From: Mobula hypostoma
Lineage: Eukaryota
DNA length: 64,000 bases
NCBI RefSeq assembly: GCF_963921235.1
Contig: NC_086097.1
Coordinates: forward strand, 164,364,001-164,428,000
Direction: 5' to 3'
Shown: piece after piece, positions 54,911-60,618 of the stretch
Layout: each line of letters opens with the position of its first letter
How positions within the stretch are numbered: position 1 is the stretch's first letter
Translations under genes and position numbers: made by a program
The notes under the pieces: model-generated
Databases searched by the model: none
Seen by the model: the letters and a program-made list of their open reading frames with translations, nothing else
What the model was told of the DNA's origin: nothing

Positions 54911-55200
54911 CTCAGTATCTCAGAAACGGCTGATTTCCTGATATTTTCATGCACATGAGTCTCTAGAGTTTACAAGAATGGTGCAAAAAAAACCCAATAA
55001 AAAACAGCTAGTGAGAGGCAGCTCTGTGGGCAAAAATGCCCTATTAATGAGAGAGTTCAGAGGAGAATGGCCAGACTGGATCAAGCTGACAGGAAGGTGA
55101 CAGTAACTCAAATAACCACACCTTACAACAGTGGTGTGCAAAAGAGCAATTCTGAACACCCAGCACATCGAAACTTGAAGTGGATAAGCTCCAGCAGCAG
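54910..55200 (+). mobile_element. Tc1 transposase N-terminal relic
   Basis: SISETADFL...QRRMARLDQADRKVTVTQITTPYNSGVQKS, a Tc1 DNA-binding region. Confidence 0.75.
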
Positions 55201-56392
55201 TAGTCCATTCTGCGTGCTACAGTTCCCTTACAGACGTTGAAATGTGCGAAGGGGGAGAAAGATTTCAAAAGAAGCAAGTGGGGGCAGTCTGGACATTCTG
55301 TGTGCCATAGTTCCCTTAGAGACATTGGAACATGAGTTGCAGGAGACAAGAAGACACTGGGGCAGTTATGACATTCTATGTACCAAAGTTCCACTGGAGA
55401 CATTGGAGATGAGACAGACCAGTATCCTTGTGGGCAGATTTGCTAGAGCTGTTGGGGAGGGTTTAAACTAATTGGACAGGAGGATGGGAACTGGAGTGAT
55501 AGGGCTGAGGATAAGGAAGTTGGTATACAAGTAGATGCAGTGTGTAGAGAAACTGTGAGGAAGGAGAGGCAAATGTTAGTGCAAAATTGCAGTCAGAGGG
55601 ATGAGTCAAAGTGCAACATGGGAGCAAAATCGAAAAGGGTTGTCATGACACTCTGCAGTTTGAGAGGGAGAAACTAAACTCAGATATATTGGTATTACTG
55701 AGGAGTAAAAGGAATTACTAAGGCATGAGAGTAACTGGCTGAAGTTGATTGGAAGATCACACTAGCAGGGATGACAGCAGAACAGCAACAGCTGAAATTT
55801 ATGGGAGCAACTCAGAAGGCACAGGATAGATACATCCCAAAACTAACCGGAGCATAACACTACCATGGCTGACAAGGGAAGTCATGGACGGCATAAAAGC
55901 TAAAGAGAGAGCATATAATATAGCAAAAATTAATAGGAATTTGGAGGATTGGGAGGCTTTTTAACAACCAACAGAAGGCATCAAAGAAAGCCATAAGGAG
56001 AGAAAACACAAAATATGAAGGTAAGCTAGCCAATAATATAAAAGATGATACCAAAGGTTTTTTCAGGTATATGAGGTGTAAAAGAAAGGTGAGAGTGGAT
56101 ATCAGACCATTGGAAAATGATGCTGGAGAGATAGCAATGGGGTACAAAGAAATGGCAGATAAACTTAAGTATTTTGTGTTAGTCTTCTCTGCGAAGACTC
56201 TAGCAGCATGCCAGAAATTCAAGAGTGTCAGGGAGCAGAAGTGAGTCTAAGGAGAAGGTGCTTCAGAAGCTGAAAGGTCTGAAGGTAGATAAGTCACCTG
56301 GATCAGATGGACTACTCCCCAGGGTTCTGAAAGAGGTAACTGAAGAGATTGTGGAGATACTTGAAGTAATGATCTTTCAAGAATCACTAGAT

Positions 56393-56529: not shown

Positions 56530-56921
56530 ACTAGATTTTGGAATGTTTCTGGAGGACTAGAAAATGGCAAATGTCACTCCACTCTTTAGGAAGGGAGAGA
56601 TACAGAAGAAAGGAAATTATAGGCCAGTTAGTCTGACTTTAGTGTTTGGGAAGATATTGGAGTCTATTATTAAGTTTGAGGTTTCAGGGTACTTGGAGGT
56701 ACATGTTAAAATAGGCCAGTCAATATGGTTTCCTTAAGGGGAAATCTTGCCTGACAAATCTGTTGTAATTCTTTGAAGGAATAGCAAGCAATATAGACAA
56801 CAAGACACAATGGAAGTTGTGTACTTGGACTTTCAGAACACCTTAGACAAGGTGCTGCACATGAAACGACTTAACAAGATAAGAACAAGATAAGAGCCGT
56901 GTAATTGCAGGAAAGATATTA

Positions 56922-57405
56922 CGAGGGGTGATTGATAAGTTCGTGGCCTAATGTAGAAGAAGTCAATTTTAGAAAACCTAGCACATTCATTTTTCAACAT
57001 AGTCCCCTCCTACATGTACACACTTAGTCCAGCGGTCGTGGAGCATACGGATCCCTTCTTTGTAGAAGTGGTCCACAGCAGGGGTGATTGATAAGTTCGT
57101 GGCCTAAGGTAGAAGGAGATGAATTATACAGCTCTCATTACATGAGCGTGCAGTTCAACTCTTTGAGTGAAAATGCAGAAAGTTTGAAGTTTCTCCTCAC
57201 CTCCTTCTACTTTAAGCCACGAACTTATCAATCACCCCTGCTGTGGACCACTTCTGGAGGTCCAAGACACTGACTTTAACAAAGAAGGGATCCGTATGCT
57301 CCACAACTGCTGGATTAAGTGTGTAAATGTAGGAAAAATAAATGTGCTAGGCTTTCTAAAATTGACTCCTTCTACCTTAGGCCACAAACTTATCAATCAC
57401 CCCCC
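56922..57405. mobile_element. Mariner-derived palindromic MITE with four TIR copies
   Basis: TA TSD at 56920-56921 and 57406-57407; TIR ggggtgattgataagttcgtggcct. The arms derive from the transposase 3' end (KEGIRMLH..W.KCVNVGGDYVEK). Confidence 0.88.
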
Positions 57406-57754
57406 ATAGAATGGATAGAAGATTGGCTGACTGGCAGGAGTCAAAGAGGAAGAATAAAGGGGGCCTTTCTTGGTTAGTTGCTGTTCACTAGTGATGTTCC
57501 GCAAGGGTTGGTGTTGGGACCATTTTTCTTCACATTATATGTCAATGATTTGGATGACAGAATTGATGGTTTGTGGGCAAGCTTTTCAGTTGATACTAAG
57601 ACAGGTAGAGGGCAGGTAATATTGAGAAAGCAAAGAGTGTGCAGAAGAACTTAGACAATTATGAGAATGGGCAAAAAAGTGGCAGATGGAATATAGTGTA
57701 GGAAAGTATATGGTCATGCACTTTAGTAGAAGGAATAAAGGCATAAACAATTTC

Positions 57755-60618
57755 CAAAAGAAAGAAGTTAAGATTGGAGTCTAGCTTCATTTTTATTTTA
57801 ACCAAGGCACACACGTACCACCTGATGCATAATGACGTATGCCATTTACATACTTTTATATATAACCTGCAATTAATTATTTAAACAACCAAACAATGCT
57901 TAATCAAATATTATAGTTACAATATTACTCAAATACAGCCGAAATATTAAATGTATAATACTTCTTCCTGCTTAGTTATAAACTCCAACTAAATACAGAA
58001 TTTGTATCAGCTGTATACACAGTATACTATATAATACAACTACTATACAGACAACCACAATATAGAAAATTTTAAATTGCCCCACTCAGGCCCAAAGATT
58101 TAATCACTGTGGAGGATTTCATACTCTTGTGGGATAACACCGTTTCTGACAAGGGAGGACATTCTGCTTGGCAGGTGAGACATGTGGCTATGAAAACAGT
58201 CTCAGGTTCTGGGGTCTCCTCTGTGGTGGGTTGTAGGAGTTGACTCTGAAATTGCAAAAAGAAGTTCTGACTTCTCTGAGATATACTTCAATCCTTGCTT
58301 TTCTCCCAGTCCTGGCTTCTTTCTCTCTCTTTATCCAACTTTTTTTCTTTATCAAATTCTTTCCCTCTTACATGTCTTTCTCTTTCTTGCTCATGTTCTT
58401 TCTCTCTATCAGCACTCTCCTTTTCTACTTGTTGTCTTTCTTTTTCTCACCTTCCTTTTTCTTCTTTGAGTTACTTGTGAGCATCCCTGAGTTTACTAAT
58501 TTCAACAGAAATTATGTCTCATTTATCCTCTTCCATTTCCATAGCACTTACAGTATGCCATCCTCCTCTTGCTTTTCCTTTTGATCTGGATGTGCATCTT
58601 GATCTAGGGAACGTGCATTCAGCTCACTGAAGTATTCTCTTAATAATCCTTCTAATGCTTCTTTTACATTCTGATCTCTCCTCCTGGTTTCCTCATCCAC
58701 AACATCATCTGGCAAATCCTCTGTTTTCGTATCTCCATTCATCCGTTCTTTTTCACCTTCCATTCATCTAGCTGGGCCTTGGCCTTTACATCTACCTTTA
58801 CAAGTTGCTTTATGTCTTTCATTAATCTTAGTACATGCAGAGTTGATACTGGTTCTTAAAATATAGCCACATTTCCAAGTAACTGCCTGATTAACATATC
58901 AGAAACTTAGTCAGATATGTTGCCTACAAAAATTGCTGTAGGCAGACCACTGCTTTCATGACTTTCATGTTTCCTCTGAACTGCATGGTCCTTCCTTGAT
59001 GCAGTATGCTTTCCAACCAGAGGCACAGGGGTTGGCACAAACACCTATTTGTCCACTGTTGGGCAACAGTTCATGACGGTTGGTATGGGAACAGTTCTGG
59101 CATTATCCAGTACTTTTCTTAATTCACTTTCTGTTGGTTTTGTTACAGGGAATGTAGCATGCAAATTCTGGATGGATCTCCAAACAAGTTGTAATTGTCT
59201 CAGGCAATCATGCCCCACAATGCTAGTCCTTCTATTTTTACCACATACAATCTCAATGTGGCTTGTTGGTTGTTGTATTTCACTGTTATGGCTGTCATTT
59301 CCACAGGAGTTATCTTTGCTCCAGTATAAGTTCTTGGTTGGATATCTGCAGGTTTCAGTTTAGTATCTTTCAAATGTCATTCAAATTCATTTTGTGGAAT
59401 GACTGAAACAGCTGAGCCAGTGTCCAATTCCATTTTAATTAATTTGCTGTTCATTTCTGGTGAAATTATTGCTTGTCTACTGGAAGATTTCACATTGTAA
59501 ATCTCAAAGCTATTCAGTTCTGTGACATTTTCATTATTATCATATTTTTCATCAACAGCATACAGATTAGTGCTTTTTTTAAAACTGCAACTTGACTTTT
59601 TATCTTTGTACTTCCCCGTGCAGATCATTTATTTTTGACTGCCTGATATGCTCTTTGTATGTGTCTTTGTATCTGTCTTTTCCATTAACACAGCTATTTC
59701 AACTGCTCCTTTGAGTTGTGCTTCAGTTAGAAGCCATTTTTGAATGATTTCCTGTGAGGTTCCACAAATGAAATGACCTCTCAGAGCATCATTAAGCACA
59801 TCTCTGAACTGACAGTATTTGGACAATCTCTTCAATTTAGCCATGTAAGCTGAAATGGACTCCCCTTCCTTTTGATTCCACTTATGAAACATAAAGCACT
59901 CTGCAAACAGCAATATTTTTGGATCTAAATGGTCCTGCATTACTTTCACAATATCAGCAAAGCTCATTTCAGTTGGTTTGGTTAGAGCAGTCACATTTCT
60001 AAGTAAACTGGATGCCTTTAAATCCAATACACTCAGCAAACTGGCACTCATTTCTCATCGGCTATTTCATTTGCTTCAAAATACTGTTCCAACTGTTCAG
60101 TATACATGAACCAATTATCAGTTGTGTAATCGAATGTGTAGCCAGGGTTTCTGCTCTTTAGTACTCAAATGTTTATGAGCCCATGAATTTTTCTGTTTGC
60201 TACTTTTTTAAAATCAACATTCCCTGTCTGTTCCTGAAGAAGCAAATGCAATACTGTTTTCTTTTATTCGACCACTTCTCACTGCACTTCCTTTTAAACT
60301 CAAACATCTTGCTGCGATTCAACAAGTAAGTATCCATCTTGGGTTTGTTTAAAACTTTCTCATCACCATTGGTGTATTTTATAAATCTAAAACATAAAGG
60401 CTAATTGAAAGGAAAGCAAGGGAGCTGAGTATGGGAGTCTAACTTCATTTTTTTACTTTGAGTGAGTCGCACACGTACCATGTGGCAGCATAATGACGTA
60501 TGTCATTTGCGTACTTTTACATATAACCAGCAATGAATCACTTTAAACAAAGAATGGTTAATCAAACAATATATTTACAATGTTACTCAAATACTACTGA
60601 AATATTGAATACACAACA
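57755..60618 (-). mobile_element. Two-LTR Gypsy element lacking RT/RNaseH/integrase core, carrying a captured host cDNA
   Basis: 5' LTR 60370-60618, PBS-like tggtgatgag at 60359-60368, gag (59629-60051), protease KMELDTGSAVSVI, integrase tail at about 58095-58265, purine tract at 57961-57973 and 3' LTR at about 57755-57960. Confidence 0.88.
58271..59090 (-). pseudogene. RBM25: Processed RBM25 fragment (RRM to RE/RD-rich region) inside the Gypsy element
   Basis: Colinear translation LVGKH..SRKDH, IFVGNISD*VSDMLIRQLL, EPVSTLHVLRL, LVKVDVKAKAQLDEWK, DEETRRRDQNVKEALEGLLREYFSELNA and MEMEEDK*DIISVEISKLRDAHK*LKEEKG matches recalled RBM25. No introns; stops and frameshifts present. Confidence 0.9.

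Follow-up and report, generated by a model that had tools for sequence, protein, structure and literature searches.

A Gypsy LTR retrotransposon family of Mobula hypostoma that carries a spliced RBM25 coding fragment in place of most of pol

The element in the window and the identity of its cargo

The DNA analyzed here is a stretch of 64,000 nucleotides from Mobula hypostoma (contig NC_086097.1, positions 164,364,001 to 164,428,000 of the forward strand), referred to below as the window. Its minus strand carries, from 60618 to about 57773, an LTR element in which an LTR, a tRNA-Ser primer site, gag, protease, a piece of RBM25, an integrase tail, a purine tract, and a truncated LTR follow one another. 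This order had been proposed in a first-pass annotation and is borne out by the following assignments.

60369..60618, minus strand: 5′ LTR of about 250 bp, starting with TGTTG; its end was placed from family copies that end in ACA
60355..60368, minus strand: primer-binding site, a decayed complement of the 3′ end of tRNA-Ser(GCT), with 9 of 13 bases in the window copy
59629..60170, minus strand: gag remnant with stops and frameshifts (PF03732, E 0.012, below the Pfam cut-off)
59103..59628, minus strand: aspartic protease (ELDTGSAVS) and linker, broken (PF13975, E 0.034, below the Pfam cut-off)
59096..59102, minus strand: 5′ switch point, the 7-nt word TGCCACA, with one change in the window copy
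58279..59095, minus strand: spliced RBM25 coding fragment with the RRM and the RE/RD-rich region but no PWI
58093..58278, minus strand: integrase C-terminal tail; the 3′ switch word of the family, GAGAAGAAA, is deleted in the window copy
57959..57972, minus strand: polypurine tract directly before the 3′ LTR
57773..57958, minus strand: 3′ LTR, truncated at its outer end and recognizable only to about 57773

The LTRs of the window copy are direct repeats 2.66 kb apart, with 82% column identity in the alignment and a K2P distance of 0.19 over 191 sites; together with the stops and frameshifts, this divergence agrees with the earlier description of a decayed copy. The TG...CA ends of the LTRs were read in sibling elements, and the window copy has no readable target-site duplication because its 3′ LTR is cut short. 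Approximately 180 bp of gag that are present in sister copies are absent near 59670, the protease region is 82 to 85% identical to those of 39 siblings, and the RBM25 fragment contains private deletions, stops, and frameshifts. The primer site, the polypurine tract, and the LTRs could all be identified; that the element kept its cis signals had been proposed at first reading. When compared with a tRNA-Ser(GCT) gene of the same genome, the primer site shows at least 8 complementary bases out of 13 in 19 of the 25 copies read. With its tRNA-Ser primer and 5-bp duplication, the family may belong to the Mag lineage of Gypsy elements.

Several other repeats were seen in the window. Fragments of CR1-like LINEs lie around the element; nested inverted repeats at 56920-57408, with arms of 76, 62, and 59 nt at 90 to 95%, represent two copies of a MITE-like element that is very deep in all four runs; and a 49-nt unit is found at 55193-55407 in three diverged copies with a spacing of 78 to 88 nt.

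The assignment of the cargo to RBM25 comes from several comparisons. In a tblastn search, gar RBM25 (P0079, residues 77-361) matched positions 59044-58291 with an E value of 6e-46, and the best named matches of a 140-aa frame in the sister copy L006 were RBM25 proteins (E 1.7e-57, 75% identity). The stop-ridden frame of the window copy itself yielded no protein relatives among 50 candidates and no Pfam family for its RBM25 part; a weak PDB match of this frame to the RRM of TIAR (E 0.27) was rejected as the cargo identity. The C-terminal part of gar RBM25, which is absent from the element, located the host gene at C1:99.79-99.80 Mb, and the host exons that match the cargo lie upstream of it, at C1:99.81-99.83 Mb. 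The PWI profile matched two other loci, presumably SRRM1-like and PRPF3-like, and not RBM25.

The host region consists of eight exons with canonical splice ends, separated by 7 introns and spanning 23.4 kb. The window copy is 86% identical to the joined exons over 795 aligned bases and retains five of the seven exon-exon junctions, all of them fused (59045/44, 58875/74, 58734/33, 58563/62, and 58474/73); the e3/e4 junction is deleted, and the e7/e8 junction is nearly lost. All seven junctions are fused in several sibling copies. The piece is thus intron-less RBM25, as initially suggested. Judging from the sister copies, about 1.07 kb of mRNA was captured, beginning with the final 7 bases of an upstream exon and reaching 27 bases into exon e8; both the start and the end of the cargo fall inside the coding sequence, with no UTR, poly(A), or A tract. 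A 48-nt in-frame exon of the host gene (16 residues; C1:99,832,586-99,832,633, L040:586-633), also flanked by canonical splice ends, was captured by the element and is absent from the gar and paddlefish proteins P0079 and P0070.

The pol-bearing parent and the switch points

The order in the pol-bearing sibling elements is PR-RT-RNase H-IN. In one of these (L120), RVT_1 (E 2.7e-21), RT_RNaseH (E 1.5e-27), and rve (E 5e-9) follow in the order typical of Gypsy, and its RT shows 60 to 64% identity to teleost K02A2.6-like proteins. The K02A2.6-like single-ORF Gypsy elements of fishes share the PR-RT-RH-IN order and have full-length relatives of about 1,310 aa, whereas RT, RNase H, and the core of the integrase are missing from the RBM25-bearing derivative. 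In the siblings, at least 2.5 kb of pol lies between the flanks that enclose RBM25 in the derivative, which means that the cargo replaces pol rather than interrupting it, and the two flanks of the window copy are collinear with single pol-bearing siblings, as expected for one Gypsy insertion; both points had been anticipated. A blastn comparison of the parent pol with the 20 best RT-RNase H loci (out of 150 listed from 23,382 candidates) returned no match, which is weak evidence against a living helper. Four other loci (L072, L076, L077, and L078, on C9, C68, C80, and C5) belong to a different, young Gypsy family with frames of 1,440 to 1,580 codons; the open frames of the first three share one start.

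Since all known copies of the parent are decayed, the switch words had to be read across several broken siblings. At the 5′ switch, the word TGCCACA occurs in the parent pol as well as where the upstream host exon ends, and the reading frame is the same on both sides. At the 3′ switch, the host mRNA has the 9-nt GAGAAGAAA in common with the parent, and the cargo is out of frame with the integrase tail; the exact word is present in 2 of the copies tabulated (L093 and L106). Microhomology at both junctions had been named as a point to check, and shared words of 7 and 9 nt were read there in family copies. The positions first given for the junctions, about 59090-59098 and 58271, need to be revised: the 5′ switch lies at 59102-59096, whereas the window copy has lost the original 3′ switch, which is legible in sister copies only.

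The same junctions bear on the possibility that a LINE-made processed pseudogene of RBM25 landed inside a Gypsy element, lost its poly(A) and duplication together with pol through flanking deletions, and was then amplified. CR1-like LINE fragments do surround the element, the family is prone to deletion at short repeats, and CR1/Tx1 elements are credited with non-mammalian retrocopies in the available text of bioRxiv 10.64898/2026.06.26.734816. However, both ends of the cargo are inside the coding sequence and sit on words shared with the parent, with neither poly(A) nor duplication around the piece, just as first described; no copy examined extends into RBM25 past the first part of exon e8, and two further precise deletions would have been required before the burst. 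A processed pseudogene is therefore disfavored, there being no mRNA 3′ end and no A tract and the flanks being parent pol, and this origin is rated very improbable. The contrary outcomes that the first-pass annotation had named (a piece other than RBM25, the target-site duplication or poly(A) of a LINE insertion, and flanks of mixed origin) were all absent.

Template-switch capture at shared words is also consistent with what is seen in related copies. In L122:6300-6800, RT and RNase H run into RBM25 exon e5 and the tail of the short form, the two parts being joined at a shared 9-nt word, TCCAGTGAA; this recombinant fits the co-packaging of helper and chimera RNAs. Several cargo-free deletion derivatives (L091, L092, L096, L097, L102, L104, and L117) use the purine-rich 3′ word of the RBM25 capture, to which either the integrase zinc finger or RNase H is joined. 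This word is a switch hot spot, and the element family underwent such switching repeatedly. The same junctions could also have come from ectopic recombination at the DNA level with an existing cDNA.

Family size, integration, and age

A DNA search of the 3.48-Gb genome assembly returned 2,802 first-look candidates, and the 40 that were scored showed, apart from the window itself, 71 to 88% identity per match and came from many contigs. A 31-mer placed across an exon junction was found in the genome at 825 places within 3 mismatches, including 56 exact ones, compared to none for the reversed control. Since only 18 of 43 sampled copies (13 of 29 plus 5 of 14) pass this filter, the total can be put at about 2,000 copies, a figure extrapolated from sampled copies among which good matches are overrepresented; the lower bound is 825. 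When the protease region alone served as the query, which is blind to the cargo, RBM25 followed the protease in 14 of the 39 best relatives and pol in the other 25 (recognized in 21 by tblastn pol matches and in 4 by the junction sequence). The protease end directly precedes the cargo in 46 of 55 copies; some of the other 9 are explained by inserts.

The RBM25 part is found in long, middle, and short forms (29, 7, and 21 copies, respectively) that have the same ends, with internal deletions in the shorter ones. The tree does not separate these forms as subfamilies. In L030:1910-2807 (element sense), the integrase tail is expanded to a tandem array with a unit of roughly 14 codons.

Target-site duplications were sought in a strict first pass, which covered 5 elements and revealed no 4- or 6-bp duplication among them, and in a relaxed pass, in which 19 of 72 elements had both LTR ends. 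In 9 of these 19 (6 of the 12 that carry RBM25), 4 or 5 of the 5 flanking bases match, as against 10 of 342 mismatched pairs; since this is far above the control, the copies can be regarded as separate integrations. The earlier suggestion of amplification in trans accordingly holds with respect to amplification, given the 825 junction matches and the 5-bp target duplications; the supply in trans is a part that we infer. Segmental duplication or an assembly artefact as the source of the many copies is refuted by the divergence of the copies, which are 71 to 83% alike, their different flanks on many contigs, their own 5-bp duplications, and the presence of the family in reads of other organisms, and such an explanation has next to no probability left.

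The analyses of the cargo rest on 63 RBM25-bearing copies, whose median p-distance from the host exons is 0.135. In a tree of 57 copies, the topology is that of a star, with terminal branches of 0.115, internal branches of 0.005, and a host branch of 0.036. The LTRs of 25 pairs have a median K2P distance of 0.19, which is similar in cargo-bearing and pol-bearing copies. These distances fit one burst soon after the capture, at a time when the helpers were still active.

In three other organisms, B, C, and E, contigs run across the junction at the truncated 3′ LTR of the window copy and differ from it by about 2%, 7%, and 6%, respectively. The insertion in the window must therefore predate the splits from these organisms, and, if rates were equal, it would be roughly threefold older than the splits from C and E. 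As for absolute ages, the available text of PMC10587355 offers a shark rate on a per-generation basis only. In other organisms, depths over the RBM25 part add up to thousands, whereas single contigs reach about 10; this agrees with a family common to these organisms, although it does not measure the number of copies.

Fate of the cargo and origin of the family

Per copy, the RBM25 fragment has 3 stops and 5 frameshifts in the median. Stops or frameshifts are found in 62 of the 63 copies; in the remaining one, L133, just 286 of 750 bases are covered. Among the differences below 50% frequency, no signal of selection on the cargo was detected, the omega-like ratio being 0.99 to 1.13 in all four classes. 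A functional retrogene was rejected on these grounds: an omega of about 1 and broken frames leave no signal of purifying selection, and a role for the RBM25 fragment is not supported. With a divergence of about 13%, antisense piRNAs from the family would be expected to cross-target host RBM25 but little.

Differences from the host at 50% frequency or higher comprise 26 synonymous changes and 1 non-synonymous change. Because of this ratio, the founder piece can be placed at most 1 to 2 residues from the present host protein in 250 codons, a near-identity that could reflect either youth or selection. Decay of the copies would predict 18.5 synonymous changes (p 0.06), and a synonymous skew is expected from a constrained host gene; given the slight excess, brief selection on the cargo of the founder is possible. 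In the shortened forms, frame retention is 16, 15, and 11 of 42 over the three frames (6 of 14 in the shortest), a test that is uninformative because private indels scramble the frame. In the presumed RNA run, for which only contigs were available, no piece among those matched bridges a cargo junction; a deep 120-nt contig of run X22 on the RBM25 part may be host mRNA.

A second cargo was encountered in the same genome. Matches to Sds3 made up 119 of the 150 scored candidates in a genome search, and four loci (L148 to L151, on C71, C59, C1, and C63) contain SUDS3 coding sequence within a related but different Gypsy family, whose gag shows about 67% DNA identity to that of the RBM25 parent. In three of the four loci read, SUDS3 is in the sense orientation and in frame shortly behind the protease. 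One of these four loci also contains, about 900 bp before the SUDS3 element, a gag-protease fragment of the RBM25 parent family (L151:1-654).

These observations allow one to ask whether the cargo or its open frame helped the element, either because a long Gag-protease-cargo frame would aid self-packaging or escape from nonsense-mediated decay or because the RBM25 fragment would alter host splicing. The in-frame 5′ junction would fit, as would the similar placement of SUDS3 behind the protease motif, the RBM25 frame that crosses the tail in another frame and stops near the stop of the parent, the 26-to-1 ratio among high-frequency differences, and the share of the cargo form among the top protease relatives (14 of 39). 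Against this stand an omega of about 1 in shared variants too, a synonymous excess that falls short of significance and that change in the host gene would be expected to produce, and the lack of significant frame retention in the shortened forms (16 of 42; 6 of 14 in the shortest). Moreover, two in-frame cases would arise by chance 1 time in 9, codon-aligned microhomology itself favors the frame, and pol-deleted forms without cargo have also spread. A benefit from the cargo is therefore considered unlikely. The two in-frame captures, of RBM25 and SUDS3, are suggestive yet within chance. That Gypsy elements of this lineage repeatedly captured regulator mRNAs in frame behind the protease, and that such elements spread through the continuous frame or through a cargo protein that raises copying, is likewise an unlikely proposition; if true, it would be a retrotransposon counterpart of oncogene capture and would account for the unusual genes at the head of the retrocopy parents in cartilaginous fishes.

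The best reading, to which we assign a high probability, is that of a single capture by microhomology-guided template switching, followed by a helper-driven burst with a passive cargo. According to this scheme, a Ty3/Gypsy element with a single gag-pol frame would have co-packaged spliced RBM25 mRNA. Reverse transcription would have left the element RNA in the integrase tail at GAGAAGAAA, proceeded along about 1.07 kb of the RBM25 mRNA, and rejoined the element RNA at TGCCACA, immediately after the protease. In the resulting chimera, the LTRs, primer site, purine tract, gag, and protease would have been retained, while RT, RNase H, and the core of the integrase were gone. With pol-bearing siblings acting in trans, the chimera would then have been copied into about 2,000 places in one old burst, during which internal deletions could have yielded the shorter forms. 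All copies seen would have decayed neutrally afterwards, with the cargo as a passenger.

The RBM25 element displays those features of LTR-mediated retrocopies that were tested: it is intron-less, replaces an internal ORF, and has microsimilarity at the switches. Capture by template switching has been published by Tan 2016 (PMC5131818), with a median microsimilarity of 6 bp. In the available text of that study, the retrocopies likewise consist of partial spliced mRNA that replaces internal ORFs between LTRs, with microsimilarity at both switches and no poly(A) or duplication; they are likewise in the sense orientation, often in frame, and can be retroposed again as non-autonomous elements, and they have been seen in zebrafish, chicken, and mouse. 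In flies, 18 insertion sites were reported there for nine retrocopies, two of them with more than one site, whereas the RBM25 family has at least 825 and probably about 2,000 copies and also includes derived short forms and a secondary recombinant with a helper. Maize Bs1 and HERV-K/FAM8A1, as summarized in PMC5131818, also have host mRNA inside an LTR element but differ in element lineage, host, and cargo.

No published RBM25-bearing element was found in the literature searched, although Dfam, Repbase, and the bioRxiv supplements may hold the family. The available text of bioRxiv 10.64898/2026.06.26.734816 lists SUDS3 among the top five retrocopy parents in cartilaginous fishes, together with MIPOL1, SDF2L1, SLU7, and ZNF276, and attributes the abundance of retrocopies to non-LTR elements and to filtering by selection; neither RBM25 nor Gypsy is mentioned in its main text, and its supplements may list RBM25. 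The available text of the manta and devil ray preprint (10.64898/2026.10.27.761883) mentions neither RBM25 nor SUDS3. In Mobula hypostoma, SUDS3, a top retrocopy parent in the former study, is a Gypsy cargo, and for the SUDS3 and RBM25 retrocopy counts Gypsy-borne cargo is a simpler account than the reading based on non-LTR elements and filtering. The mechanism of capture is known; a report of such a scale in a vertebrate, about 2,000 copies, was not found in the literature searched.

If this reading is correct, one accident of LTR template switching is enough to give a vertebrate genome about two thousand copies of a spliced gene piece, so many that roughly one in three of the closest relatives sampled has the cargo. 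The RBM25 and SUDS3 counts of this genome would then follow from single captures that were multiplied as transposons. The burst also preserves a snapshot of an old RBM25 isoform, including the 48-nt exon, and provides hundreds of insertions that can serve as dated markers in the host lineage.
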